A stretch of 60,761 nt of DNA, filler included, from Squatina squatina (Eukaryota): assembly GCA_031763465.1 (NCBI GenBank). It is 4 parts of 4 records of this genome, joined end to end, with 100 filler letters (N's around TTAATTAATTAA, not from the genome) between each part and the next. Parts side by side here need not be neighbours in the genome. Positions count along the whole stretch, not along the records: positions 1 to 16,460 come from JARFOE010000080.1; 3 more parts are not named here. One strand, written 5' to 3'. Shown in pieces: positions 1 to 50,198 of the stretch; position 1 is the first letter of the stretch; each line of letters begins with the position of its first letter. The position numbers and the translations under genes were made by a program. The notes beneath the pieces are model-generated. The model had not been told where the DNA came from, did not search any database, and worked only from the letters and a program-made list of their open reading frames with translations.

Positions 1-39
1 AACATTATTGCTCTGAAATTCTGAGTCTTACAATAATGG

Positions 40-575
40 GAGTGGAAGGCAAGAGAGCTGCCAATAAAACAGTCTGGACCATGTGGCGCAGGTGGGAAAT
101 GGCAACTCCTTAACCAGTGCAGGGTGAGGTCTAATAACCTCACAAGGTCACCAAAAGTCAGTGAGAAGGCCACAAGCTGGCTTTAATTTATATTTTGTAC
201 ATTTTGGACAGTACCTTAAAAATGCATTACCTAATCCAAGGGTATCGCCCTGTGTGTGAAGTGTTCTGANNNNNNNNNNGGAAGACTTCAATTAAATGAA
301 CGCGCCATTGCTGCAATTCATGCATGCTTATTGAGACATCACTACTTTGATGGAAATTACATAAGTGAAAAGATTTTTAAATAGTCAAATTTAAACAGTC
401 CGTGACTGACAATAATGAGCATTCTTTTTTTGTGCAGGTAAAGATTTTGCACAATTCTAGAGAAGGGCAGGCTATAGGAGCAGGGACAGCAAGTGGATGA
501 GGCAAAGCAAGTCTTGGGAAGTCAGCTAATTCTATAGGAGATGGAGATATGGGAGGGCCTACACCCACAGAAGGT
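40..575 (+). mobile_element. Degraded PIF/Harbinger ORF2 (Myb/SANT-like DNA-binding protein) remnant, two exon-like pieces
   Basis: Translation QCRVRSNNLTRSPK (~114-160) resembles the QCRKRFNDLTR motif. After a ttttttgtgcag acceptor, VKILHNSREGQAIGAG...SIGDGDMGG resembles the K.AHN.RER..TGGG...GDGE segment of Harbinger Myb proteins. Confidence 0.5.
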
Positions 576-787
576 TTGTGCTGACTAAGCACTAATAGTC
601 AATGACCAGAAATGGTTTCTTTTTTGAGGCTCATATTCCAAGAAGGCACTTACATGTGATTAACAGGAAGGAAAATGTGTACAACAANNNNNNNNNNNNN
701 NNNNNNNNNNNNNNNNNNNNNNNNNNNNNNNNNNNNNNNNNNNNNNNNNNNNNNNNNNNNNNNNNNNNNNNNNNNNNNNNNNNNNNN

Positions 788-1780
788 AGAAAAATTTTAT
801 GAGAAACTGCTAAAAGAGATGGTCCGGCAATTTTATGAGAAGAATTATGGGGACGAAAGTTGGGGAGATTTATATAAACTGGTAAATAACAGTCATACGG
901 GCTTGAGGAGACAAAAAAGGGGGTTATTCAATGACGCGGCCACGGTATTTAATACAGGGACGTCCCAATCAATAGTATGGATAACACTCAGTTGCAAATA
1001 CAAGTAAATACCTTAAAGGACCAGCTAAAGAAAATACTGGGGGAGGGTAATAATATTGGGGGGACAAGTATTGCAGGAAGACCAAGTGATGACAATTCAC
1101 CTGAAGGAAATAATAGCTGAGTTGGAGACTCGCACCCAGACCATAAACAAACTAATAAAGGAAGTACGAAATGCTTCGGACCGGGCCGCCCAAAATGACG
1201 CATGTGTCATGTACGGTGCCTGGTTGTTAAACGAAGGGTGTAGTAATTTAGAGGATTTGAAACAAGGCCACATATCGTCATGGATTGGCAACTGGCACCT
1301 AAAGGCTATAAGGGCACATAACGAGCTTATGAATCCGTGTCAGCTGCGGTCGACCTCCGATCAACTGTGGTCAAAATAAACAAACTATAGGGGAGGTACA
1401 CATGTGGTATTGTGCCCATACCACCTGAATCTTTTCGATCGGCCAGTATGTGAGTTTGATTTTGGAAGCGGACAGCCTATCAACTGTATCATGAGGGTGA
1501 TGGCTCAGAGCCATGTCTCACTCCAAGTCGCATATAAGGGTGATGGAACCTACTGTATTACCACTAATGAGAGCCGGTATAGGGTACACAATGATACCTG
1601 GTGTCCAGTTCAAGACACTACCTCTTGCTTCAGACCCCAGATAGAGGTCCAGGTAGCACAGGAATCACATCCCAATCAATATCACGGTTAACGGTACTTT
1701 GCCAAACCTCCAGGAATACATATCTCGTTTTGGATATGATATGCCGCCAATACCCGACCACTTGAATAAACTAGTAAAGG
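788..1780 (+). mobile_element. env: Endogenous viral env pseudogene fragment (class I fusion protein, lokiretrovirus/foamy-like)
   Basis: Furin site RRQKR|GLF at 906-920, then a fusion-peptide-like GLFNDAATVFNTGTS. Heptad helices INSMDNTQLQIQVNTLKDQLKKIL and LKEIIAELETRTQTINKLIKEV follow, then a Cys-rich region (LCPYH, PVCEF, INCIM, GTYCITTN, WCPV, TTSCF) and N-glycosylation sequons (NNS, NAS, NES, NDT, NIT, NGT). Disrupted by frameshifts near 967, 1057 and 1665 and a stop at 1377. Confidence 0.8.
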
Positions 1781-3226
1781 NNNNNNNNNNNNNNNNNNNN
1801 NNNNNNNNNNNNNNNNNNNNNNNNNNNNNNNNNNNNNNNNNNNNNNNNNNNNNNNNNNNNNNNNNNNNNNNNNNNNNNNNTTTAATTGATATCATCTTTC
1901 ATGGTTGAGTAGTGCTTAATGTGCTGACAAGCACCCTTTGCAGAGCATTTTTAAGGACAATGTGCAGCTCAGTGGTATTTAGAGTTTTCTTTTAATTAGG
2001 AACCCATTCTGCACTTCTTCCGTAAACTCGGTAGGTATGATTCCCCGCCGCGGAGCTGTCTGACAGATTATGTTTGTCTTAATTTAATATAACTGAGGGC
2101 AAGCTCATTTAATCAGTTATACTTGCATATAGACTGAAAATTCAAATCACATGACTTCGGAAGACACAACAGTCAACACTTCCTTCTGTCAGTCTTATGA
2201 TTCATTGAAGCTCTGTTGAGATAACAGGTGGCTCATTTGTTTGTATAATTAAAATACACCGATAGGTGTTTTTGTATAAATGCAGCCTTGTATTACTGTT
2301 TCTCAGCAATTGTGAAACAACCGCCATCAGTGCGATATGTACTTTTCTATTACCCTTTGCCTTATTTTGCGTTGTGTTTTAAAGCCCACGTACTCGACCA
2401 ATTCTAATTCAGTTCGAAATCAGGTTACAGTTATGTAGCAGCTATATTTTGTTTTTTGTTTTTTAAATTGTCACAAATATTGTTCTCATGAAAGTCAAAT
2501 GTGTCAGAGCTGAAAATTATTGTCATACGCTTGTCACCTAGGGACCAAAATTGGCTGTCGTCACGTTTCAAACGCTGCAACTCTTTTTAGCGCCAAAACA
2601 GCACCCGGCGTTGATAGTGNNNNNNNNNNNNNNNNNNNNNNNNNNNNNNNNNNNNNNNNNNNNNNNNNNNNNNNNNNNNNNNNNNNNNNNNNNNNNNNNN
2701 NNNNNNNNNNNNNNNNNNNGGACAATATAATTTATTAATGTGCCCGGGACGAAAATTCTATATGCGATTAGATCAACAATTATATCGTGTGAAGAAGTCG
2801 TTTTCACTGCTATATACAAATGAACAGCAATATTCAGTTAAGGTCAGTAACCAGTGGAATACAGACTATGCCGGTATCACAAAACACAGTCAACAGGTGG
2901 CTTCGAACAGTTGGAAAAGTTTCTTACTTTTAAAAATAAATGTAAGCCCAATTGTGCAATCAAACTATTTTGACTGCATTTAAAAAGTGAAAAGTATGCA
3001 ATAATGTTCTTAGTTTCTGACCTGAGCCATTCTAAACTTTCGGTGAATTCTGTCTCAATGGTTTGCCAACAGAGACCTCCACGAAAGTTAATCGCTTTTT
3101 CGAGCGCTTTTGGATTTGACTCATTTAAAAACATATAAGATAACATCGGCCAATTAAAGAATTTACCGACAGATTTTCAGACTGAAAGATCTGAAAACGG
3201 TGTATTAATCAAACTGTGCGGCTTAC

Positions 3227-4097
3227 CTTGTCAAACCACTGTAGTGAGAGTAACCTTGCGAATAATTGTCCGCCATTGCTTTAGTTCCACCTTGATAGCC
3301 CAGGTATGTAATGGGTTGGTACCAGGTCACAGGGGCTGAAGAAGTAGACGGCATGGTATCATCTTGAACCAAGAAGCTGCAATTAAGTCCTGATTCATGG
3401 TGGGACAGACCATATGAATCTATAGGTTCAGTCTTAAACATTACAGCATCTTCCAGTGGCTCGCCTCTCATGCTGGGTCTTTGCTGTTGAGGGGAAACGG
3501 TATAGTCAGTATATGGGGAATAGCCAGTGGGCATATAACCGAAGGTGTTGCTGGGTTCCTGGCTCATGTTCATTGCCGGGTGCACTTCGGGTTGGAAATT
3601 CCTCTCGCCTTTCGAATTGGGGGAGCCGCCAGTCTCGGCAAAACCGTACGAGCTGGAGATGTCCGGGATGTAAGGTGCGTGGTCGCAATCGTCCGTGGTG
3701 AGAAGTTGGTGAGTACGTGCGGCCAGGTAGATCGGATTGAGCGGCAGGAAAGGAAAACGGAAAATGTTCAGAGGTGACAACTGGCCCCGGGGGTTTGGGT
3801 GACAGCCATCGTCTGTGTCTTGGCAGATTTCGGATTTCATGGAATGCAGAGTGGCGGCCGCTCCGCCGTGCTCCACTGAACCTAGACTGTGTCCAGCGCA
3901 CACTTTGCGCAATTTGGGCTCTGTGGGAATATTCCTATCTGTGCTGATCAGCGACCAGGAAGTCCCAGGGTCAGTGGGGATGGACTGCTTGCCCGGCCCC
4001 AGCCCCTCGGAACTGCTTTCACTTAAACTTAAATCGCAATTTGTCCACGTAGTGGGCTCCGCCGCCTCACTCAGACTGGACACTAAGGATATGCCCA
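3227..4097 (-). CDS. PGR: Progesterone receptor, exon 1 (3' part of N-terminal A/B domain; 5' part lost in gap)
   Basis: Open frame of about 290 codons up to the gap. FPFLPLNPIYLAARTHQLL matches the PR motif (human VPILPLNHALLAARTRQLL). The end LGYQ...YSGLTR aligns with human LGYQ...YLNYLR and stops at a phase-2 AG|GTAAGC donor (GT at 3226-3225). TRPC6 lies nearby on the same strand, as in other vertebrates. Confidence 0.88.
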
Positions 4098-5010
4098 NNN
4101 NNNNNNNNNNNNNNNNNNNNNNNNNNNNNNNNNNNNNNNNNNNNNNNNNNNNNNNNNNNNNNNNNNNNNNNNNNNNNNNNNNNNNNNNNNNNNNNNNNNN
4201 NNNNNNNNNNNNNNNNNNNNNNNNNNNNNNNNNNNNNNNNNNNNNNNNNNNNNNNNNNNNNNNNNNNNNNNNNNNNNNNNNNNNNNNNNNNNNNNNNNNN
4301 NNNNNNNNNNNNNNNNNNNNNNNNNNNNNNNNNNNNNNNNNNNNNNNNNNNNNNNNNNNNNNNNNNNNNNNNNNNNNNNNNNNNNNNNNNNNNNNNNNNN
4401 NNNNNNNNNNNNNNNNNNNNNNNNNNNNNNNNNNNNNNNNNNNNNNNNNNNNNNNNNNNNNNNNNNNNNNNNNNNNNNNNNNNNNNNNNNNNNNNNNNNN
4501 NNNNNNNNNNNNNNNNNNNNNNNNNNNNNNNNNNNNNNNNNNNNNNNNNNNNNNNNNNNNNNNNNNNNNNNNNNNNNNNNNNNNNNNNNNNNNNNNNNNN
4601 NNNNNNNNNNNNNNNNNNNNNNNNNNNNNNNNNNNNNNNNNNNNNNNNNNNNNNNNNNNNNNNNNNNNNNNNNNNNNNNNNNNNNNNNNNNNNNNNNNNN
4701 NNNNNNNNNNNNNNNNNNNNNNNNNNNNNNNNNNNNNNNNNNNNNNNNNNNNNNNNNNNNNNNNNNNNNNNNNNNNNNNNNNNNNNNNNNNNNNNNNNNN
4801 NNNNNNNNNNNNNNNNNNNNNNNNNNNNNNNNNNNNNNNNNNNNNNNNNNNNNNNNNNNNNNNNNNNNNNNNNNNNNNNNNNNNNNNNNNNNNNNNNNNN
4901 NNNNNNNNNNNNNNNNNNNNNNNNNNNNNNNNNNNNNNNNNNNNNNNNNNNNNNNNNNNNNNNNNNNNNNNNNNNNNNNNNNNNNNNNNNNNNNNNNNNN
5001 NNNNNNNNNN

Positions 5011-5742
5011 GCGTGATCGCAGCCGTCCTCCTCTGCCGTTTTGTTTCTCCTTCCCTCACTGTCTCGGCTCTCCGTCTATCACGTGTTAGTGAAGATGTGA
5101 GACTTTACGTACTGTACAGCGATCATCACACGTCACAAAAAGTTTACTCCTGAAAGTTTTAACTTACAAGGTAGAAACATCCGGGGTCATTTTCCCCTCC
5201 TCCTCTCTTGTCTTAAAGCTGCTTTGTCTCTTTATTTCGCCACCAAGAGCGTCGAGCTTGTCAATCTCTGGTCAATAGCATTAGACCATTGAAACAGTCA
5301 GGCCATTGACGCAGGCACTGATGTACTCGGGCTGAATTAAGGTGAAAGTGGCGCTAACTTAACGCGCGTTTCCAGATTCAGAAAAAGCCGCACGGGAGTC
5401 CTTTCGGATACCAATCCCAAACGGCACTTAGTGCTTTCTCAAAAAAAAATCTCGAAATAGTAATGAATTTGTTAAAGGAGGAGGAGCCAATTCAGCTGCT
5501 GGAGTCCTTCATAGGTCACTGGAAAGGAATCACCAACTACTACATTGTGACCACAGGTATGGCCCCGTGGTTACATTCAACTATGCTTCAACTGCCTGCC
5601 AGTCACTGCAGCAGAATGTTAGATTTTTAAAAAAGGTGTTTGATGAGCGAGGTGGAATGACTTGTGGTTCCAGTGCACTGTTATACAAAGCAATTGAACA
5701 CTTCAAATAGAATTACAGCGGGGATTATTTACAACACAGATT
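5011..5742 (-). promoter_or_regulatory. Probable PGR 5' UTR/promoter region
   Basis: CpG-enriched non-repeat contig directly upstream of PGR exon 1 across a sized gap. Contains CCAAT (5487-5491) and GGTCA half-sites (5185, 5270, 5514). Confidence 0.4.
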
Positions 5743-5842
5743 NNNNNNNNNNNNNNNNNNNNNNNNNNNNNNNNNNNNNNNNNNNNNNNNNNNNNNNNNN
5801 NNNNNNNNNNNNNNNNNNNNNNNNNNNNNNNNNNNNNNNNNN

Positions 5843-6155
5843 CTACCACCTTCAAAGATTTGTGCACATACACCCTCACGTCGCTATGTTCCTACACCCC
5901 CTTTAAAATTGTACCATTTAGCTTATATTGCCTCTCCTCGTTCTTCCAACCAAAATGTATCACTTCATACTTCTCTGCGTTAAATTTCATCTGCCATGTG
6001 TCTGCCCATTTCACCAGTCTGTCTATGTCCTCCTGAAGTATGTTACTATTCTCCACGTTGTTTACTACAAGTTTCATGTCATCTGCAAATTTCAAAATTA
6101 TGCCCTGTCCAGGTTACTAACACATATCAAAAAAGCAGTGGTCTTAATACTGACC
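5843..6155 (-). mobile_element. CR1 LINE ORF2 RT fragment
   Basis: KFADDMKL...LQEDIDRLVKWADTWQMKFNAEKYEVIHFG, typical of CR1 RT. Confidence 0.9.
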
Positions 6156-8824
6156 AAATGATGCAATGTTGCTTTGAATTGGTCAACACAGATAGACTTA
6201 ATCTTCTGAGTGTCAGCTTTCAAAATTCTAGTCACATATTCTGTTGTGATTTCAGCAAAAAATACATTCTCTAAATTCCCCATAAATAAACCCATTGACT
6301 GCCACTGGCGAGAAATATTCATCTCAGTTTGCTGAAGAAATCACATATTGTAACACAAATTCTAATACAGCATTTATTTTACCTAATTAATGTGTTCAAA
6401 ACTGTTGTAAACACCAAATGTAATTTGCAACAAATATACAGATATGATAAAAACAACTTTAACAAATGACATCAAGCCAAAATAAATCTCCAACAGATTC
6501 AAGACAANNNNNNNNNNNNNNNNNNNNNNNNNNNNNNNNNNNNNNNNNNNNNNNNNNNNNNNNNNNNNNNNNNNNNNNNNNNNNNNNNNNNNNNNNNNNN
6601 NNNNNNNTAGTAACGAATTCTGATGATGAATCTCCTGCCATCTTGCTTTGTTTAGTATTCCCTTTTATTTTGTCTAATCTTTTGTTTTTTTGTTTTTTTA
6701 CACAACAGGAAACAAGCATTTTAAACTTAGTTGCAAAAATGACTACAGCAAAAAATAAATGTGATTGAATGCTTCTTCTGCTAAATTATGATGTAAATAA
6801 AATAGTAAATGAATCTTTTGCCCTCCCCTTGCTGAAGAGGTTGCACCCAAGGGGCACTTAATTTGCTGCCTCCTATTCTAACATAGAGCCTGCTCAATTG
6901 AACACAATAGCCTCATTAAAGCGATGTTCTGAGGAATATTTTTAATGGTTTACTTGGATTCTACTTAAAGTTGCACCTCAAATACATTCATCACTGCTGA
7001 AAGCTCAATCAGAATTTGATTGCTTTCCATCATCCACATAGAATTGCTTCTAAAGCTGTCTAGAGCTGAGGGGAGTAGTGGAATTAGGTTGTGTGTTTTT
7101 TTTGTTCTACCCATTATCTGCATACAATGAAATACTTACTCAGGAATATATTAATATTAAATTATCTGTGATTTGCCACCAAAGAGTTTACCAAAATCAT
7201 AGGTCCCAATAAAGTCTTCAGCAGTGTGGACTGTTGATTCAAAAGTGTTGGTGCTGAAAGTACTTAAGGGATTTCTTGAAAATTGCAATACAGTGTGGTT
7301 TTTGCNNNNNNNNNNNNNNNNNNNNNNNNNNNNNNNNNNNNNNNNNNNNNNNNNNNNNNNNNNNNNNNNNNNNNNNNNNNNNNNNNNNNNNNNNNNNNNN
7401 NNNNNTATTAAGTGGAAAATATTTAAGGACTAACATTTTTGGAAGAACATTAAAATTTCACCTGTACCTTTATTCTATTCAATTGCTAAATCAATATCAC
7501 GGCAATATTTTCGAGACTAAATCATCAATATAGCATCAGAAGGAAAGATGAAGGATGATGTAAACTTTCAGTAAATAGCTAAAAGTCTGTCCATTAACAC
7601 TTCTTTAAAAGATGTGCAGGAAGGATGATAAGAGCTTGAATGATATCTGAAATAGCATTGTTAAGATCTACAAAATGGAAAATAAATGAATAGTTCTTTT
7701 CACACATCTTTAGCTCAGTCTCACCTCATTATGGAAGATGTTCATATGATCTTAAAAAGAGGCAGATCAGAGATGATCACATTATAGAAGTGCGAATGAA
7801 TAGTTTTAGCTATTCTTACAACCAGTGGAACCTACTGAACTTCAAATCTGATAAAATCAAAGCTAATTAAAAATTAATCTTTTATATCCCAAACCATTTT
7901 TATTCAGGGTAATGGAAAATATTGTAGTTAAGNNNNNNNNNNTACCAGATTGGAATTTTTAGTGAATGCTCCGCATCCTCCCAAAGCACAATAACTAAAT
8001 CAAAAACTGCACAGATTAATCAAATCACTCTGTGAATTGGGTTGTACAGCTTCTGCCACATATCAAGGCTTCAACACTTCTAATTATTCAACATTAATGT
8101 GAAAATAACATTATCAACATGCTCTGATACACAGATGAAAAATTAACAAATTAACAAGTACAATGGTGAGAATGGGAGCTNNNNNNNNNNNNNNNNNNNN
8201 NNNNNNNNNNNNNNNNNNNNNNNNNNNNNNNNNNNNNNNNNNNNNNNNNNNNNNNNNNNNNNNNNNNNNNNNNNNNNNNNATGTTTTCAGTACACGTCCT
8301 ATTGATTGTAACAAACTTGTGCTCTTAATTAGCGTCATATCTCATTACCTCTGACTTCAAGCCTTCTGGGTCACACTGACCATATGACAAATCGTCACCA
8401 AGGGAGATTTAATTTTCTCAGTCATGTGAAATAGCCAAATCATTATATATATTCCATTTATCTGTTGAAATATAACGAGTGCAATCTTTCTCTTACTGAG
8501 CAACTGAGAAAGTATCAATTGTTAAGTGACAACCAGAGCCTTTAAAAAAAACAAGACTGTCTTCTTTTTATGCAAATTACTTGCTTGAAGCTTGAAGCTG
8601 TCAGTTGGTAAACAAGGTAGCAAAACCAACATTATATTTTGTGATGACTTAAAATGCACACATAAAGGAACCTTAAATAACAACTACGAAGACTAGATTT
8701 TCACCTGTCTCTGTGACTGTTGAGTACAAATGGTGAAATATGCTCCCGTACAGAATTTTTCACCTGGAATGACACTGTATTTAAATAATCAAATGGTTGC
8801 AAAGTAAACTTTATTTGCTATGGT

Positions 8825-9033
8825 AGCAGTGACTGGTCATTAGTGTTCAGTGACTGGTCATTAGTATTCAGTGACTGGTCAGTAATACTCAGTGGCTGGA
8901 CAGTAGTATTCAGTGGCTGGTCATTAGTATTCAGTGACTGGACAGTAGTATTCAGTGACTGGTCAGTAGTACTCAGTGGCTGGACAGTAGTATTCAGTGA
9001 CTGGTCAGTCGTACTCAGTGGCTGGACAGTAGT
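8825..9033. repeat. 21-bp minisatellite, about 10 copies (tcagtg[a/g]ctgg[t/a]cagtagtat), truncated by gap
   Basis: Direct tandem repetition. Produces the periodic ORFs TTVQPLSTTDQSLN and FSDWSVV. Confidence 0.95.
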
Positions 9034-9859
9034 NNNNNNNNNNNNNNNNNNNNNNNNNNNNNNNNNNNNNNNNNNNNNNNNNNNNNNNNNNNNNNNNNNN
9101 NNNNNNNNNNNNNNNNNNNNNNNNNNNNNNNNNGCCATTCGGCCCACTGAGCCTGTGCTTGATCTTTGAAAGAGCTATCCAATGAGTTGATACCTAAATT
9201 AATCTAAGTTGATAACTTGAATATGGAAACTACCCAGACATAATCTCCACTTCCCACCCTCCTGCCTTTGAATAACGCCCTCCAGTAACTCGGAACCATA
9301 TCACATTCTTTCACGTTTATGCACATTGTGTAGCTTTTACAGCCACATAAAGAAATGATGTTGCCCTCTAGTATTTAAGGGAATGTTTCTCGACTAACTG
9401 AAAGGATGCAGCTCATATGTTTAGTTTTGACAACTTGCAGCTGTTTTCTTCCTCATGAAGTGTCTACCCAGACTTGCGAAACAATCCTGCGAAAACTTGT
9501 TGGAACCATTACTCGGGTGAGAGAGAAAAAAAAGAGATCTAAAATTGTGGCAGCTACAGACTTCACTGTGATCTTTTTCTATTGTGTCTTTCAATCTATT
9601 TTAAAAATGCAATACAAATATTCCCAAATCAATCCATTGAGTTTCTGACTCAGCTATTTATCCCTTCAGATAACAAAGAATTACCAAGGACTATTCCTGT
9701 TGATTCAGATAATTAGCTAAAATGCTAATGAATATTGTTACTTAGGATTCTGTCTAGCTAATAGTATTAACACCCTCTGATAATAAAACATATCTATTGG
9801 ACTGGAAACAAAGATTGGCCAGGAAAACAGTAACTGAACAATGGCATGTCTTCAAGGCA

Positions 9860-10718
9860 GAGATAGATCAGGTAAAAACCAAGTATATTCCCATACGGAG
9901 GTAAGATGGGGCATCCAAAGCTAGAGCTCCCTGGATGACAAGAGGAATACAGGTTAAAATAAAACAGAAAAAGGAGGTTTATGTCAAATGTCAAATACAG
10001 TTGAAAGCCAGGTTGAATATTGAGAGCGTAGGGGGAAATTATAAAAAAATATTATTAGGGCAAAGGGAGAGTATGAGAAAAGATTAGCAGGTAATGTAAA
10101 AAGGAACCTAGAAATCTTTTATAAACATATAAAACATGAAAGGATAGCTAAAGGAATGGTGGCGCCGATTTAGGACTAAAAAGGAAATCTTGTGGAGGCA
10201 GAGGGCATGACTGAAGTACTGAATAAGTACTTTGCATCTGTCTTCACAAAAGAAGAGGATGAAGTTAATGAAGTTGAGGGGGGAGTAAAGATGGGCTAAA
10301 AATAGATAGAAAGGAGGTGCTAAATAGGTTGGCGTCACTCAAAGTTAACAAGTCACCCGGTCCAGATGGGATTCATCCTCAGTTCCTGAGGGATGCAAGG
10401 GTGGAGATATCAGAAGCTCTGACTATAATCTTTCAATCTTCCTTGAATATGGGAGTGGTGCCAGTCCTGTTTAAAAAAAAGGGGAGGGATAAACCTGGAA
10501 ATTACAGGCCAGTCAAACGTCTGTGGTACAAAAATAGTCGAGACAATTGCCAAGGACAAAATTAATTCTCACCCAGAGAAGCATAGGTTAATAGACAGCC
10601 AGCACAAATTTGTTAAAGGCAAATCATCTGACTTACCTGATTCTTTGATAAAGTAACAGACAAGGTTGATGAAGGTATTGCGGTAGATGTATGTAAAGCA
10701 CCACATAACAGATTTATT
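9860..10718 (+). mobile_element. CR1 LINE ORF2 fragment
   Basis: EVLNKYFASVFTKE and LKVNKSPGPDGIHP...LFKKKGRDKPGNYRPV motifs, frameshifted. Confidence 0.9.
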
Positions 10719-11503
10719 NNNNNNNNNNNNNNNNNNNNNNNNNNNNNNNNNNNNNNNNNNNNNNNNNNNNNNNNNNNNNNNNNNNNNNNNNNNNNNNNNN
10801 NNNNNNNNNNNNNNNNNNNNNNNNNNNNNNNNNNNNNNNNNNNNNNNNNNNNNNNNNNNNNNNNNNNNNNNNNNNNNNNNNNNNNNNNNNNNNNNNNNNN
10901 NNNNNNNNNNNNNNNNNNNNNNNNNNNNNNNNNNNNNNNNNNNNNNNNNNNNNNNNNNNNNNNNNNNNNNNNNNNNNNNNNNNNNNNNNNNNNNNNNNNN
11001 NNNNNNNNNNNNNNNNNNNNNNNNNNNNNNNNNNNNNNNNNNNNNNNNNNNNNNNNNNNNNNNNNNNNNNNNNNNNNNNNNNNNNNNNNNNNNNNNNNNN
11101 NNNNNNNNNNNNNNNNNNNNNNNNNNNNNNNNNNNNNNNNNNNNNNNNNNNNNNNNNNNNNNNNNNNNNNNNNNNNNNNNNNNNNNNNNNNNNNNNNNNN
11201 NNNNNNNNNNNNNNNNNNNNNNNNNNNNNNNNNNNNNNNNNNNNNNNNNNNNNNNNNNNNNNNNNNNNNNNNNNNNNNNNNNNNNNNNNNNNNNNNNNNN
11301 NNNNNNNNNNNNNNNNNNNNNNNNNNNNNNNNNNNNNNNNNNNNNNNNNNNNNNNNNNNNNNNNNNNNNNNNNNNNNNNNNNNNNNNNNNNNNNNNNNNN
11401 NNNNNNNNNNNNNNNNNNNNNNNNNNNNNNNNNNNNNNNNNNNNNNNNNNNNNNNNNNNNNNNNNNNNNNNNNNNNNNNNNNNNNNNNNNNNNNNNNNNN
11501 NNA

Positions 11504-11860
11504 CCACTGCGTAAGAACAGTATGACAGTCACTAAGGGACTGCATAAGGGTGATAGTTGATATTTTGATGTAATATTGGATGGATATATAGATAAAGTTG
11601 GATTGGAAAGTTTGCTTTTTCCAGCATTGTGGCCAAGAGGACGCTGTGATGGTCAGTAACAGAGGGAAGGTAAGGTGTGGGACTAATGTTGAAAAGGGAA
11701 TTGGGGTTGTGGTCACTGGGACTGCAGGTGGATGATTCCATTGCGGATATCCTGGCCACAAAGGGGCTGTCTGGGATGCATCCTTCTATCTGATTCCTCA
11801 TCTTCTGCTTCCTCCTCTTTTATGTTCCTCTTCCCTCTGTGAGCAGATGCTGTAAATGTG
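11504..11860 (-). mobile_element. PIF/Harbinger transposase C-terminal/3' remnant
   Basis: KEEEAEDEESDRRMHPRQPLCGQDIRNGIIHLQ resembles the acidic tail plus R.R..LI ending of HARBI-type transposases. Confidence 0.5.
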
Positions 11861-11899
11861 AAATGACAGCATAAAATGCTGATCAGGCAGCATCTCAAC

Positions 11900-11980
11900 C
11901 GAAGATGTGAACTGTGTTTTCCTTTCCACGGATGTTGCCTCACCTGCTGAGTATTTGCAGCATGTTCTGTCTTCTCAAAG
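11900..11980 (+). mobile_element. Penelope-type terminal fragment
   Basis: gatgttgcctcacctgctgagtatttgcagcatgttctgt matches the common shark PLE tail (gatgctgcctgacctgctgagtatttccagcattttctg). Confidence 0.5.
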
Positions 11981-12989
11981 GCCTTCATTCACTAACCATG
12001 CTCTTACAAGCACCCAACAGCACTCCCTACACATTTAAAAATCTTTTCACATCTATTGCACCACTTCAATAAAATTGAAAAAAAACCCAGGCCAAAATCT
12101 TAAATCCAAACTTACCTGAACGATATATGTGTCCCTTTAAGAGGTGCAAACATTGCCACTGACAGCCTGGTATTGAAGTTCGTGCTTATGACGTAAAGTC
12201 GGCATTGCACGTCAATTGATGTCACACCGCCTCGATTTTGTTGGGGATGGCGCTGCCAGTTACCAGCAGCAGGACCCGTCACCAGCTAGCGCAAGAGCGG
12301 TGGCCGCTGTTTTAGCGGCATTTAATGGCACCATGGAGAGGTGCTAATGCCACAAATTTCTCGCCCATAGATTCTTTTCTATGATTCAGTTTGATATGTG
12401 GAATAGGGAGTAAAATTGTATGTTACCAATAAAACTAAAAGAATTGCATGCAGTCTGTGCAATGTATAAAAGAGAAAATCCAAACAGAACTTTCATATGC
12501 TAAGCATTAGCCGTTACAATGACATTTGGAAACAGGGTAGCTTGGTAGACAACCACTAGTTATACAGCTTGTTGTTTCTGATGGATGGCATAATTTGTGC
12601 TGCCATTTGTTTAAATCACTGTTTTATTTATTGTACTTACAAATGATGGAAGGCAACACACTAATTCTAACAGTGAATCTATGTGCAGCTTTTGCCTCTG
12701 TGTGGTAGTTTGGAGCTATTGCATTTTACATAAAGACTATCTGGAATAACTAAATAGTGTAGACACCACTCGGTGTAATAGGCCTTTTTTTCCTCCAGTT
12801 ATTTCCCCTTTACATGTCTCCTCTTCAAAGAGATTGACTCCTGGTGAGATACAGGTCCAAAAGCGTGGCCGGTTTTCTGGTAGCCATTCTTCATATATGA
12901 GCCTATAATGGTATGGGCTGTAAATCTGCTTTCGCAGAGGAGCTGATGAGAATCAGTAAATAGACAAAGATTGATCTGAATGATAGTGG

Positions 12990-13377
12990 TGAATATTACC
13001 CCCCAAAAACAGGTGGGTTTGGGGCGTGTGTAAAGTTATAATTTAAAAAATTTCAAGCCCAATCCCAGACCACCTTGAACCGCCCACTTCTGGCTTTAAA
13101 GGAGGCTGAACGTGGCGGTGGGGCGGGTGACCAGTCCACTCTCAGGAGGCGGGTTAGTTGTTGAAACCTTTTAAGGAGGCTGTGTGCCTTCATTTTAAAA
13201 AGGTTTGTTTTTTTAACCTATGTCGGCTGAGTTTCCCGAACTGCAGGTAAACCGGCAGGTAAAAGGAGGCAAGAAGGACCGGATCCATAAGATAAGTACC
13301 TTTACAGCACTGCTTGTGGGCCAGAAGGAGCAGGAGTGTTTCCTCCTGACCCAACAGGCTAACTCTCTAAAACTACA
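12990..13377 (+). mobile_element. Non-autonomous Harbinger-like DNA transposon (same family as 54770-55480)
   Basis: Shares ccccaaaaa..ggtgggtttggg...ccactc.caggaggcg...gaggctgtg with 54776-54970. Confidence 0.65.
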
Positions 13378-13889
13378 NNNNNNNNNNNNNNNNNNNNNNN
13401 NNNNNNNNNNNNNNNNNNNNNNNNNNNNNNNNNNNNNNNNNNNNNNNNNNNNNNNNNNNNNNNNNNNNNNNNNNNNNTATATTGCTAACAGTTGTTCAAT
13501 AAACTAACTGTACCCTGGTAACATAAAATAAAAGCCATCATAATAACATACTATCCACTTGACTATCCCTTTTAGACTAATCTAGTAATTATTTTACTAG
13601 TTTGTCCTTTTGCTGCTGTAAATACTATAAATCAGAAGTCTTAGCACAAATGAAATCCACCCACCTGGGTGATATTTATGGGGATATTAGTATTTACATT
13701 TTCTGCCATTTCTTTAAATATTTAAGAAGATTAAAGGAGCTTTCTCCTCTCAAGCTATTTGATGTAGTTTTTGGCTTTTTTCATTTTTACACTATTGATT
13801 TATTTTGTTTAAAGTCTTGGGTGAATTTTGTGCTCATTACAGTGAAACATATTAATGCTGGGGAATGTGATATTTTTCTTCATTGAATG

Positions 13890-14033
13890 TTGGCATTAAG
13901 TACTCCCAGGACAGGTATAGCAGTATTAAATACGGACAAAATCTCGCTTTACTCTTTCCCATCAATGTTCCAAAGTTCCAATCTTAGAATAACACTCCGA
14001 CCTGCATCATCATGTCACTTTTCCACTTCTCAT
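13890..14033 (-). mobile_element. Old SINE fragment, possibly LF-SINE-related 3' part; second copy at about 29685-29880
   Basis: Both copies share aag.actccca..acaggt.t.g.. This recalls the reverse complement of the LF-SINE 3' region. Confidence 0.35.
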
Positions 14034-14142
14034 NNNNNNNNNNNNNNNNNNNNNNNNNNNNNNNNNNNNNNNNNNNNNNNNNNNNNNNNNNNNNNNNNNN
14101 NNNNNNNNNNNNNNNNNNNNNNNNNNNNNNNNNAAACATTAC

Positions 14143-14346
14143 CTTTTCCATTTCTGCATTTTCCTGATACTGTCCTTTTCTACACCTTAACAGACTGATT
14201 AGCGATTTTTTAATTCTCAGCAGGAGATAGAAGATGGACTTCGGGCTCGGCACCAAGTTAAATGGCACTGCAAGTGTGCGTCCCTCTTCAAAATAGGAAA
14301 TCCATAGTTTGGCTCTGGAAAACTTCCATTCCACATCAGCATCATT
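14143..14346 (-). CDS. TRPC6: TRPC6 internal exon (TRP helix/TRP box; equivalent of human exon 9)
   Basis: 204-nt exon with ttttgtag acceptor and AAG|gtaatg donor. [47 protein letters not shown]...QENAEMEK closely matches human TRPC6 [43 protein letters not shown]...QEDAEMNK. Confidence 0.93.
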
Positions 14347-14617
14347 CTACAAAATCATGAAAATATGAGGTTAATAATAAAGGAATAGAAAAGCACGAGC
14401 ATCTAACTGTGTGGCCGTATACAGGTGTGTCTCATAGGCAATTTAAACGTAGAGACCTGAGACCAAGAAGTTTCCACTGACCAGTTTTGTGTAGTTTCCA
14501 GCCCACAAAAATGGACTTTAATATTGCTATTAAGGCATTTCCTATTAAAGTGCAGAGTTAGCAGTCATGATTACAGTTTACTGTAACATCCAAAGTTACC
14601 ATGACTGGAGTCTCAAA

Positions 14618-14880
14618 GGGGTCAAAATTCAGTTTTTTTTTTTTACCCTGTTAACACCTCCAAGGGGCGCTAACAGGGCAAAAAAGTGAAATTCGGTGTG
14701 GCGAGGCGGTGACCTCGCCTGCCGGAAAATTCACCAGGGGGTTCCAGAGGCACAAAGGCCTCTGTTCCCTCTAAGCTGCCTGCAGGCGCACAGCCGTCTT
14801 AAAGATACCGCGCAGCCTACTCACAAGCTCTTAAATAACACGCATGTGAGGCCACTGTGCAAAAATTTACAGGTACTGCA
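14618..14880 (+). mobile_element. Harbinger-like MITE left end
   Basis: Starts ggggtcaaaattc. The same terminal motif recurs at 23643 and 29066 and, reversed, near 12360, 21935, 26810, 30815 and 57355. GC-rich body. Confidence 0.55.
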
Positions 14881-14926
14881 TGAAAGCTCACACTCTAGGC
14901 TCTCTGCAATACTTCTCTCCTTCCAG

Positions 14927-15098
14927 CCGTGCAAATATTACAACAAACGTAAATGCAAGGACAGGAACTGCATGTACCTGCACGTTTGCAAATATTACTT
15001 CAACGGAAACTGCAAATATGGGGAAAATTGTAGATTGAGCCACAGGATGAGTCCCAACACTGAATCCTCCTCGTCATCGGATCAAGACACACCAAGAA
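14927..15098 (+). CDS. Exon (or pseudo-exon) encoding two tandem CCCH zinc fingers, PARP12/ZC3HAV1-like, antisense within a TRPC6 intron
   Basis: Strong acceptor ttctctccttccag followed by PCKYYNKRKCKDRNCMYLH-VCKYYFNGNCKYGENCRLSH (C-x7-C-x4-C-x3-H and C-x7-C-x5-C-x3-H) and a Ser-rich linker. Possible donor A|gtgagg at 15099, otherwise TAG at 15125. Confidence 0.72.
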
Positions 15099-15164
15099 GT
15101 GAGGTTCTGTTTATTGATGAAGAATAGGATGGTGGCTATCGAAACCATCAGCGGTGACTTTTGT

Positions 15165-15418
15165 AAAGATTCTCTCCTTGTTTTCAAATCCCTCCATGGC
15201 CTCACCCCTGCCTATCTTTGTAATCTCCTCCAGTCCTACAGCTCTCCGAGATCTCTGCGCTCCTCCAATTCTGGCCTCTTGCACATCCCCGATTATCGTT
15301 GCTCCACCATTGGCAGCCGTACCTTCAGCTGCCGGGGCCCTAAGCTCTGGAATTCTGCCCCTAAACCTCTCAGCCCTCTACCTCTCTCTACCGTTCTTTA
15401 AGATACTCCTTAAAACCG
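15165..15418 (+). mobile_element. L2 LINE 3' fragment
   Basis: LLVFKSLHGLTPAYLCNLLQ...RSLRSS...FSCRGPKLWNS. Confidence 0.9.
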
Positions 15419-16088
15419 NNNNNNNNNNNNNNNNNNNNNNNNNNNNNNNNNNNNNNNNNNNNNNNNNNNNNNNNNNNNNNNNNNNNNNNNNNNNNNNNNN
15501 NNNNNNNNNNNNNNNNNNAACAGAACAGCTCAAGTAGTACAGGCAATGAATTTGCACAATATATTCGGGACTGCTTTCTAGAACAATCTGTTTCAGAAAT
15601 GACAAGCAAACAGGCCACACCAAATTTAGTGATGAGTAATGAACCAGAATTAGTTAACAATCTGATGGCAAGGGATCTTTTGCAAATATTGACTACAATA
15701 TTTGATATTAGGTTGAGAGGGAGAAGACAAAGTCACAAATCAAGGTTTTAAATTGAGGGAAACTTTGAAGGAATGAGAAATAACTTACTTAACAGATTAA
15801 AATAAATAGGCTAACACCACTAGTAAAATTGCAGAGAAAAATTTTTTGATTAAGCATACTAATCATATCATTTATACTACAGAAGGAGATTATTCAGCCC
15901 ATTGTGCCTGTGCCCATGGTAACCCTTCAAAGTTGTGTCTGGTTGATGATCTAGCATCAGCATTAAATTTGCATATTAAAATGTTAGTATTCCACAACAT
16001 AATTTCAAAGCCATTATATTTAGATTTTTCACTACAGCATCCAACGATGGTCTTTTTTTTTACCATTAACAATAAATTTAAAGCATTA

Positions 16089-16358
<270 letters not shown>

Positions 16359-16504
16359 TCAAAACATACGCTTCTTAGAAATTTCAATTAAAATAACCCA
16401 GCATCCCATTTGGGAGAGAAATTTCCAAATTTTCACCAATCTTTGTGAGAAAAAATGGTTNNNNNNNNNNNNNNNNNNNNNNNNNNNNNNNNNNNNNNNN
16501 NNNN

Positions 16505-16516
16505 TTAATTAATTAA
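16505..16516. other. Assembly linker TTAATTAATTAA inside N gap (also 32211-32222 and 45239-45250)
   Basis: Identical 12-mer with stops in all six frames, centred in a 100-nt gap three times. Confidence 0.9.
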
Positions 16517-27156: not shown

Positions 27157-27525
27157 CAATTTTAAAATTCTCAACGTCTGTTCAAATCGTCCATGGCCTT
27201 GCCCCTCCCAAACTCTGTAACCTCCTCCAGCACTACAACCCTCTTGTGATCTCTGCGCTCCTCCAATTCGGGCCTCTTGCACATCTCCAATTTCCTTCAC
27301 CCACCACTGGCAGCCGTGCCTTCAGCTGCCTACACCCTAAGCTCTGGAATTCACTCCCTAAATCTCTTTGTATCTCTACCTCTCTCTCATCCTTTAAGTC
27401 ATTCCTTAAAACCAACCTCCTTAACTAACCTTTATTGACCTGTCCTACTATCGCCTTCCTCTCCTATGAAGCACCTTGGGATATTTTACTGCACTAAAGG
27501 CACTATAGAAATGCAACTTAGTGTT
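27157..27525 (+). mobile_element. L2 LINE 3' end
   Basis: HGLAPPKLCNLLQ...AFSCLHPKLWNSLP...SFKSFLKT plus tail gaagcaccttggg...ggcactatagaaatgcaa. Confidence 0.9.
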
Positions 27526-31545: not shown

Positions 31546-33825
31546 AGCAATTTCTTTAGGGGCGGGGCAGTGGGATCAATATTTTGAAAAATACATGTGC
31601 TCCTAAATATTTATTACTTTTTGCACAGACGAAAGCGTACTATAGACTAGAATGAAATGGCATGTAATAATTGTGCGTCGACTCACAGTGGGGGTAACAT
31701 CTGTCTTCCACGGGATAAATATGGAAGCCAAAATCATTGTAGTGACATTTTATTAGCTTGGGTTTCTGATATCATTTCATTCTTAGGAGGGAATGTGCTG
31801 GAGGCCTTTAATTCTTATCACCTCTGTCAAAACTCTTTTTGATTCCAACATATGTCAAAAAACATAGTGTCTCAAACAAAGATGTTAATAAGTGACATTT
31901 CGCGTGTTTGGGAACTGCTGTAAATACCACTTGATTGCACTGCTTGTGAATTATTCAGCGTTTTTAATAACCCTCACAGCTTATCATTCCTTTAGCCTGT
32001 CATTTCTATTCTCCTTTAATTAACTATCAACGTCGCATTGATGTGTCTGACAGCTTCATCACGATTATTATGCTAATATTTTAGCTAACTTTGTTATTTT
32101 GAATTATGAGGCCTGCACATTTTGGTTGATGATGCAGGACTACCAGACAAAACCACATAAGCTCCCNNNNNNNNNNNNNNNNNNNNNNNNNNNNNNNNNN
32201 NNNNNNNNNNTTAATTAATTAANNNNNNNNNNNNNNNNNNNNNNNNNNNNNNNNNNNNNNNNNNNNCCAAAAAGGTTGCTGGAAATGATCAACAGAGTTC
32301 AGGATTTAAAAAAAATATTTGCCTCATTTACGCATAATCCGATTTCTCTATTCCTTATAGTTTATGAATCCTAAAGTTATCTTAAAAGTCTGCAGTACTG
32401 ATATTCAACTAAGGTACTTTTACTAGATGCCTTTCCTTTTCACTCTGCGTATCTGTTTTTGATTTTTTTTTTGTCCTGTACATATTTATTTCTTTGGTAG
32501 GTTCGGGGAGGAGACAGCACACAATACTCTGAATTGCAGGCATTGAGGTTGTGTGACATGAAATGCCTCCTTCACTTATCACCCAACCAGGTGCAGTTCA
32601 ATTTTTAACGTGCTTATTGCACATGTTGCACCATGTGTCAGTGTGATGGGAAAATCATTGGCCCAGATTTTCCTGGGGACCTGTGCCATTGTAATGTTGT
32701 AGAGACCCTTGAAGACGCGAAAGAAAGAGGAAATTATGGAGTAAACAACTCTTGTGATTAATTTTTCTTTCACTCGGTTGTTACCTTTGCTGAAAAGTTA
32801 GAAGGTAATTATCATGGCTCCGCCCCCATTAAAATCAATGATGATTGCGATTTTCCTGCACCAAAGGCAGTTTTTAGGCCACTGCCATTGAGACTGAATG
32901 ATAATAGTGCCGGTGACCTGTCAGTGGCATGATTAATTGACTGAGAAGAGGGTTCCTGTGAAAATGCTCCTAACATTTGAAAATTAGAAAAGCCAATTCT
33001 TTGTGAAGTTAAATTCAGAAAGTGCAACTTGTACTGTCCGTGTTAGAAAGGAGTGGATTAATCACCCATGAATGCTCACTGTTTGATTTGGATTCCTATT
33101 GTGCCGTCGCTTCTCGGAGTAAATTAATGGAAATGGCTTCCGATAACATTGCGTTTATTATAGATAGCTGGCTGAATGCTGCACACAGTAAACTGCAGTA
33201 AATCACTTGAATTGTAAATCGCAAATTTATACTTTTAAATTTTACAGTTTAAACATTCACCCTCTCAACATGCTTTGCAGAATTCTATCCATTTGCACCC
33301 TCCAGCCACCAGCCTACAAGTTCTATAATGGCAGTAGCAAACAAATGAAACAAAACAGGCCACACCTTTGAATTATTCCTGATTAATTTTAATGGGAAGC
33401 AAACTCATCTGATTCAATTTAAAGGTAGTTAATGCCAGCCACGTGCAAAGGTTCTTACACAAACATACATTATGGGTATGCATAGGAAATAATAAACAAT
33501 CTGTAAAAACAGTCTGTAAATGACCATTGGCTTTGTTGCCTCTGATTCACTGTTATGCTCACTGTGGCATATTTCAACGAGAAAACCAGAAAAATTTGGA
33601 GTAAGTTAGCAACGGTGACATTGGTGCACTGGATGGCAAAATTTATGGCGTGCGTTGCCAATATTGAAGTTGCAGAAAATTCTGGACTTAAATGTAAGCG
33701 ATTATTTATATAGGATTACATAGGGNNNNNNNNNNNNNNNNNNNNNNNNNNNNNNNNNNNNNNNNNNNNNNNNNNNNNNNNNNNNNNNNNNNNNNNNNNN
33801 NNNNNNNNNNNNNNNNNNNNNNNNN

Positions 33826-42150: not shown

Positions 42151-42944
42151 TATGTGACTTTTAAAAATAATAGTAGTAATGTCAAATAATTTAGAAACTT
42201 GAGTATTTTTTCCGCCTTGACTATCATGATCAAGTGAAATTTTAGATTAATTTGCGACTTTAGATGGTCGCTTCAGTGAATTATGGGGTTTTGAGGGCTG
42301 TAATAATCCGGTATTTGTGTCGAGCACTTTTTTTCCAATAGAGTCCTTAGGGAAAAGGTGATGGAGATTTGGGTGGGTATGATATGGAGGGGGGAGGGGG
42401 GAGAGTTGGCACGTTGGCGCGATTCTGAACAGCTGGTCAGGAATCCTGTCATGTGTCCAGGAAATGTTAGCTCAGGAATTTGAAAGAGGTTCGCGAGGGG
42501 GCCGTGGCTGTTAGTCCCAGGCACAGAGGGGGCTGGAGAGCGTCCAACTCGAGAGAGAGAGAAACACACACACACACACACAATCAATGCTGTGCGTGTG
42601 TATCTCCTGACCTCTTCACCCTCTCTGAACTGGGGCAGGAATTGAACCCAGGTCCCGGAGGGTGAAAGGTCATGACCCCGTGCTCCTGTCCTGGGCCAAG
42701 GGCTGGGACCATGCGTGCCCGAGCAGAGGCTGCAAGGCGTTGCCTGACTCCAGATTGCCCTGTGATTATGGGCTGGGCGTGCCTGGAATTGGAGACAGCT
42801 GTGCACCCAGAGCTGAGCACCCGGCCAATTTTTCAGGTGCCTGGCTCTGGGCTGTAAAGGAGGTTCCATCGAAATCAAGAGCTCCGACACTTGCCAACCC
42901 CGTATGAATCGTTCAGTGTTAATATTCACATATATGGACAAATT

Positions 42945-43091
42945 AAGCAAACGTGAAAAACTGTGGCAAATGGATTTCAATGTGAGGTCATCCACTTTGG
43001 ACCTAAAAAGGACAGAACAGGGTATTTTCTAAATGGTGAAAAGCTAAAAACAGTGGATGTCCAAAGAGACTCGGGGGGTCCGGGTACATCG
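42945..43091 (+). mobile_element. CR1 LINE RT fragment
   Basis: KLWQMDFN/CEVIHFGPKKDR...LNGEKL. Confidence 0.85.
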
Positions 43092-45194: not shown

Positions 45195-45294
45195 NNNNNN
45201 NNNNNNNNNNNNNNNNNNNNNNNNNNNNNNNNNNNNNNTTAATTAATTAANNNNNNNNNNNNNNNNNNNNNNNNNNNNNNNNNNNNNNNNNNNN

Positions 45295-49289: not shown

Positions 49290-50198
49290 TCTCCCTTTCC
49301 CAATCTATCACCATTCAGATAATAATCTGAAGATACCCCACTCTACCTCTCCTCCACCCTCTCTATAATATCAGACTGCTTGTCCGACATCTAACGCTGG
49401 TTGAGTAGAAATTTCCCCCAATTAAATATAGACCAAAGCCATTGTCTTTCTACTGACTCCATCTCTCTCCCCAGCAACTGCCTAATGCTGACCAAATTTG
49501 TTTGCAAGCTTGGTGTCACATTCATTCTGTCACTAAGACTGCCTATTTTCACATTCGTAATATCGCCTGTCTCCCCCCTTACCTTAATTTGTCTGCTGTT
49601 GAAACCCACATCCATGCCTTTATCACCTCTAGACTTGACTATTCCAATGCACTCCTAGTTGGCCCCTCTTGTTCTACCCTCCATGAACTTGAAGTCATCC
49701 AAAACTCTGCCGCCCCTGTGCTAACTCATACGAAGTTCCGCTTACCCATCTCCCCTGTACTTACTGAACTACATTGGCTCCCGGTTAAGCAATGCCTTGA
49801 TTTTAAAATTATCATCCTTGTTTTCAAATCCCTCTATGGCCTCACCTCTCCTTATCTCTGTCATCTCCTCCAGCCCTATAGTCACACTCGACTTCTGCCC
49901 TCCGCCTATTCTGGCCTTTTGAACATCTCCAACTTTAAATGCTCCACCATTGGTGGTCATGCCTTCAGCTGTCTAGGTCCTAAGCTTTGAATTCCCTCTC
50001 GAAATCTCTCCACTTATTTTTCCTCCTTTAAAATGCTCATTAAAACCTACCTCTTTGACCAAGCTTTTGGTCATCTGCCCAACATCTCCTTGTATGACTC
50101 AGTATCAAATTTTTTTTTTTTTTGGCAACAGTCCTGAGAAGCACCTTGGAATGTTTTATTACTTTAAAGGCACTATCGAAATAAAAGTTGTTGTTGTT
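49290..50198 (+). mobile_element. L2 LINE ORF2 3' part and tail
   Basis: AYFHIRNIA...HAFITSRLDYSNALL...LHWLPVKQCLDFKI...GPKL with a gttgttgttg tail. Confidence 0.92.

Follow-up and report, generated by a model that had tools for sequence, protein, structure and literature searches.

According to the available part of PMC8102003, PARP12 and ZAP (ZC3HAV1, or PARP13) carry five CCCH fingers and a PARP domain. In ZAP, as far as the accessible sections of the two papers go, CpG is read by finger 2 (PMC11414379), and poly(ADP-ribose) is bound by the pocket of the WWE domain (PMC8853533). In zebrafish, the gene si:ch211-244b2.4 is reported, in the accessible parts of two studies, to be up 2.2-fold and 4.7-fold after nodavirus infection (PMC8987509), and to show a log2 fold change of 1.93 in birnavirus-infected spleen (PMC11139271). 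In stickleback, si:ch211-244b2.4 is placed on group IV, near impdh1b and pcloa, in the available part of PMC8549617. Within the main texts retrieved by our literature search, the gene is named only in tables; no paper on the shark gene was found by the same search, and the supplements of a zebrafish ISG study (10.1101/693333) may list it.

The copying of short genomic pieces next to transposon ends is described for animal Pack-TIRs. In the accessible part of PMC8277862, 208 of 370 Pack-TIRs are hAT elements and the captured piece, about 224 bp long, is acquired mostly via gap filling; exonic sequence is held by 13.4% of them, and 59.8% of the single-copy ones copy from the same chromosome.

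The DNA analyzed here, indicated as the window, is a stretch of 60,761 nt from Squatina squatina (GCA_031763465.1), composed of four joined parts, the first of which (1-16,460) comes from JARFOE010000080.1; its assembly features 52 contigs, with a median length of 822 bp, for about 55 kb of assembled sequence. On the plus strand, the frame starting at 14927 reads PCKYYNKRKCKDRNCMYLHVCKYYFNGNCKYGENCRLSHRMSPNTESSSSSDQDTPR, followed by SEVLFIDEE*DGGYRNHQR*. The corresponding exon, 172 nt long and going from phase 0 to phase 1, encodes two CCCH fingers, with spacing C-x7-C-x4-C-x3-H and C-x7-C-x5-C-x3-H, and a Ser-rich linker. Its peptide scores above the Pfam cut-offs for zf-CCCH_4 (E 4.7e-8), zf-CCCH_PARP12 (E 7.1e-7) and zf-CCCH_tandem (E 6.5e-6); Rfam gave no matches. 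Of the 6,995 AG sites in the window, 51 score as well as the acceptor, at 14925-6, or better; the GTRAG form of the donor (GTGAG, at 15099) is shared by 205 of the 5,955 GT sites. Both splice sites coincide with the edges of homology to shark proteins. A TRPC6 exon encoded on the minus strand is found 581 nt away, within the same gap-free contig (14134-15418), and the host TRPC6 intron, bounded by the two TRPC6 exons reported in Table 1, covers 14347-16103, with one gap of unknown size.

The initial annotation had described a tandem-CCCH exon on an ungapped TRPC6 contig, provided with a strong acceptor, two intact fingers and a Ser-rich linker: all this is confirmed by the data above. It had also extended the exon to 15165, and had seen in the read-through stops a possible indication of decay. 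The end has to be moved back to 15098, where both the donor and the limit of homology are found; the stops are located past the donor, in intron sequence, and are therefore no sign of decay.

Table 1. Features of the TRPC6 intron region, with position in the window, strand and supporting evidence
Feature	Position	Strand	Evidence
TRPC6 exon with TRP box, profile positions 719-787	14143-14346	-	TRPC6 profile
Stretch richer in GC and able to form a hairpin, perhaps another small repeat	14618-14758	.	inverted repeat 14639-14685
Probable end of a DNA element with terminal inverted repeats (hAT-like); right boundary approximate	14760-14880	.	5' end shared with locus L010
Polypyrimidine tract and AG acceptor, likely inherited from the parent's upstream intron	14901-14926	+	homology begins at 14927
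Tandem-CCCH exon of the si:ch211-244b2.4 / PARP12-like CCCH-WWE gene	14927-15098	+	Pfam, shark protein homology
GTGAGG donor and short unique stretch with read-through stops, likely the start of the parent's next intron	15099-15160	+	homology ends at 15097-8
LINE (L2-like) 3' fragment, entering the gap 15419-15518	15161-15418	+	two further copies in the window
Preceding TRPC6 exon (pore/S6), profile positions 653-718	16104-16301	-	TRPC6 profile

By homology, the exon is identified as the finger exon of a known shark gene, si:ch211-244b2.4 ("PARP12-like"), and not as part of a new gene. A search with the exon peptide matched 7 of 13 candidates, all of them shark proteins, with identities of 68-89%; they are named PARP12, PARP12-like, si:ch211-244b2.4 or uncharacterised, in agreement with the PARP12/ZAP-related CCCH-WWE family originally proposed. 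The highest identity, 89%, is to the Heterodontus protein, of which the exon spans precisely the two fingers and the Ser linker. When the seven proteins are compared with the DNA by TBLASTN, homology is strong over the exon alone and stops at or before the donor. The gene is annotated in 10 shark species, as counted from the members of the matched clusters (representative records: XP_067906235.1, XP_041072314.1, XP_043564693.1). Its proteins are mostly 372-395 aa long and feature an acidic head, two CCCH fingers and three WWE matches; a PARP match was found by Pfam in none of the seven homologues scanned. The same layout of head, fingers and WWE is found in eel and trumpetfish proteins.

Other searches added little: the one for exon-sized homologues (36-116 aa) gave no candidate, a metagenome scan with the exon peptide produced 424 pattern matches, none of which was confirmed, and the best 150 of the 1,571 matches among representative proteins were mostly multi-finger repeat proteins, only teleost relatives being gained. 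Two models of the parent gene differ from the common layout. In Mustelus, XP_078077216.1 is a 1,055-aa model, in which the CCCH-WWE gene is joined to a start derived from a repeat and to a WWE-only unit located downstream. The model suggests that a gene with WWE domains only lies next to the parent; it may correspond to si:ch211-244b2.3 of zebrafish, also virus-induced. In Carcharodon, XP_041072315.1 is an annotated 271-aa isoform, WWE-only, lacking the head and the finger exon.

The term "antiviral-type", used for the exon in the initial annotation, is fair for the parent gene, because two different viruses induce its zebrafish namesake, according to the accessible parts of the two studies cited above. 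Zebrafish-shark orthology is here taken from NCBI naming, and the induction data are from zebrafish only.

The genomic localization of the parent gene bears on the proposal, also made in the initial annotation, of an undescribed nested antisense gene. To label the chromosomes, we took the size, in Mb, of the sequence encoding each protein; the comparison covers five of the 10 species, those having a TRPC6 record among the 15 of 28 cluster members listed. In all five, TRPC6 and si:ch211-244b2.4 are found on different chromosome-sized sequences, of 95.8 and 70.0 Mb, respectively, in Chiloscyllium plagiosum, 163.0 and 98.4 Mb in Heterodontus, 148.0 and 80.6 Mb in Cetorhinus, 126.7 and 80.2 Mb in Hemiscyllium, 108.6 and 58.8 Mb in Rhincodon. 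An undescribed nested gene is thus not supported by the comparison with other sharks, where the gene is both already annotated and located elsewhere. The alternative offered at the same time, a duplicated or captured fragment, turns out to be the best reading.

The exon is enclosed between two repeats, separated by about 280 bp of unique DNA, which comprise the exon and roughly 45 and 60 bp of intron. On the left side, the sequence at 14760 opens with the same bases as a 382-bp inverted-end element, present in L010, one of 13 loci featuring the motif; beyond the searched 19-mer, the similarity to this element is reached by 5 of 1000 shuffles. The remaining 12 loci feature a short motif or a simple-repeat extension only. 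The element in L010 is flanked by a decayed 8-bp match (5 of 8). The stretch at 14760-14880 is therefore likely to be a hAT-like transposon end, where the hAT label is tentative and based on this 5/8 flank match. No significant second TIR or target-site duplication was found in the assembled DNA; the other end could lie within the gap 15419-15518. A candidate right TIR with duplication at 15714-15734, presumably within a CR1 remnant, was rejected: 14 of 170 real stretches reach the same score, though only 25 of 1000 shuffles do so. On the right side, the repeat starting at 15161, which we take to be L2, is 79.5% identical to 27160-27413 and 77.5% identical to 49801-50010 of the window.

On balance, and with somewhat better than even confidence, we take the sequence to be a young orphan copy of one exon of si:ch211-244b2.4, located in a TRPC6 intron and likely inert. 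About 280 bp of genomic DNA, including the exon and both splice sites, would have been copied from the parent's chromosome into the TRPC6 intron; copying would have been DNA-based, because the intron ends came along. The likeliest route would be the repair, by template switching, of a break located within the likely transposon end or next to it, with gap filling of the Pack-TIR type, a route which carries about half of the weight of the orphan-exon reading. The LINE would have been inserted after the exon copy. Being antisense, the splice sites of the copy would not be seen by the TRPC6 pre-mRNA, and no protein would be produced from it, because a start codon and WWE exons are missing. An exon antisense to TRPC6, with neither start nor partner exons, is expected to be inert.

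The same reading makes the copy young, because little drift is observed. All 17 invariant finger columns are kept, and private changes are two, both in the linker (0-14 in 10 orthologues). In simulations, a dead copy keeps the frame, the splice sites and all 8 ligands in 56% of cases at 2% drift, in 22% at 5% and in 3% at 12%; the last value argues against an old dead copy. Intactness was also considered as an indication of function, and rejected as such for its low power, as it cannot separate a dead from a working copy. The absence of decay is a point against the orphan copy, and the same intact appearance would be expected of a genuine exon brought here by a mis-join.

The rest of the window was examined for TRPC6 and other features. 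Only two TRPC6 exons are found, so that the scaffold is either very incomplete or not collinear: the 3' exons expected before PGR and all upstream exons are absent from 4096-14133 and 16302-60761. The TRPC6 exon next to the CCCH exon features the TRP box EWKFSR, with a change at a position where Ala is present in 136 of 136 aligned TRPC6-like proteins; a variant, a base error and relaxed selection are all conceivable causes. As to the idea of a dead TRPC6 copy, the TRP-box change is the one private change, and departures are 12, compared with 8-14 in other cartilaginous fish. On the minus strand, a 290-codon open frame at 3226-4095, with a weak Pfam match to Prog_receptor (E 0.01), is likely to be progesterone receptor exon 1, in what we take to be the TRPC6-PGR neighbourhood; the window yielded no C4 zinc-finger exon.

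Three broken ORFs at 789-1688 (+), with a basic cleavage-like site, Cys-rich stretches and no significant Pfam match, resemble, in our view, what is left of an envelope gene, either viral or from a retroelement. At 42276-43028 (-), a 251-codon stop-free frame has no Pfam match. Islands of 12 bases, each between two runs of 44 N, are present at 16505-16516, 32211-32222 and 45239-45250; one is AT-only, with stops in several frames, and they are likely a scaffolding spacer.

A strong rival to the orphan copy, overlooked in the initial annotation, is a chimeric short-read contig, in which the TRPC6 intron would have been mis-joined to the actual locus of si:ch211-244b2.4 through a repeat common to both, at about 14618-14880; the exon would then be genuine, working and unrelated to TRPC6. 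We take this explanation seriously, even if we do not expect it to be the true one. The exon is as conserved as working orthologues and, among 10 sequences, is the closest to Heterodontus, with 6 differences; repeat-like DNA is present both between the two exons and at the right end of the contig. The fragmentation of the window into 52 short contigs, and the lack of the TRPC6 3' exons expected before PGR (about four, on our assumption), point in the same direction. Diverged repeats, on the other hand, seldom have in common exact words long enough to produce a mis-join; other contigs of the window run through diverged repeats, and, for those that separate the two exons, the window contains no further copy.

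Quite improbable, in our judgement, is a working CCCH-WWE gene, moved or duplicated into TRPC6 in this lineage, in antisense orientation, whose first exon would lie beyond the TRPC6 exon at 14143-14346, and whose WWE exons would fall in gaps; its product might be a virus-induced adaptor, binding RNA and poly(ADP-ribose). The frame, the ligands and both splice sites are intact, as such a gene would require, and partner exons could be hidden, because gap sizes are unknown and most TRPC6 exons are missing as well. The localization of the two genes in all five comparable sharks speaks against it, as does the content of the window. A profile of nine shark proteins, run against 2,468 six-frame pieces of the window, detects the CCCH exon alone (E 7e-34; next best 1.2), no other exon of the gene being found in the 55 kb assembled. 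The window has 320 stop-free pieces of at least 55 aa, and the longest 150 of them were scanned with Pfam. Besides the CCCH piece, one exon of TRPC6 and two pieces of reverse transcriptase were recognised; three more matches were weak and below cut-off, and none was to WWE or PARP. Nearby WWE or PARP exons, a check suggested with the initial annotation, are thus not found among the pieces scanned. This kind of evidence is weak in general, because the same profile test recovers, from 52 short contigs, just two TRPC6 exons (135 of 880 profile positions). More telling is the gap-free segment 14347-14926, where no acidic head is present (at most 4 D/E per 30 residues): the full gene, therefore, could not be contained in the intron, and would interleave with TRPC6 exons. 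Our literature search found no paper on a gene nested in TRPC6.

Very improbable is also that a real orphan exon has been recruited by a novel transcript running antisense across TRPC6, either non-coding or chimeric: both splice sites are strong, and 5 of 8 human exonic Pack-TIRs are transcribed, according to the accessible part of PMC8277862, but the transcript, its promoter and its partner exons would all be putative, and recent copying fully explains the splice sites. A virus-inducible CCCH-WWE gene, or its hAT-captured finger exon, moved into TRPC6 in this shark lineage and spliced into a working antisense transcript interleaved with the exons of the channel, so that infection would drive transcription head-on through TRPC6, is held to be improbable.

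If the exon is an orphan copy, or the product of a mis-join, the locus has little weight by itself, and serves as a caution for the annotation of fragmented shark assemblies; an orphan exon would be, at best, one more DNA-based exon capture, in a lineage for which no described case was found. An interleaved antisense gene, if true, would mean that an antiviral gene has become nested, specifically in this lineage, within the gene of an ion channel, and transcriptional interference could be tested on it; the arrangement, a CCCH exon within TRPC6, was not found in print by our literature search. The more useful by-product is the parent gene, a PARP-less relative of ZAP and PARP12, which encodes two fingers and three WWE and has been maintained in both sharks and teleosts.

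Compared with Pack-TIRs, as described in the accessible part of Tan et al. 2021 (PMC8277862), the orphan copy would likewise consist of a few hundred bases of genomic DNA, comprising an exon and intron ends, beside a TIR-like end; a Pack-TIR-like capture would fit in size and superfamily. Here, in contrast, only the putative left end is found in the assembled DNA, with no significant target-site duplication, and a source on another chromosome is the rarer case among those reported there.

Compared with the zinc-finger proteins, the fingers of the exon match the PARP12 family of Pfam, and align best with ZAP residues 163-198, corresponding to the end of finger 3 and to finger 4 in the numbering used in the accessible part of PMC11414379. 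The WWE region of the parent protein matches the ZAP central domain both by sequence and by fold, the latter in a predicted model; in the AlphaFold model, the finger region has pLDDT below 50 and no usable fold. CpG reading and poly(ADP-ribose) binding are features of ZAP, and would be putative for the shark protein. With two fingers, three WWE matches and no PARP match, as against the five fingers and the PARP domain of PARP12 and ZAP, the parent gene is to be seen as a relative of these proteins, rather than a member of their group, and may work like them.
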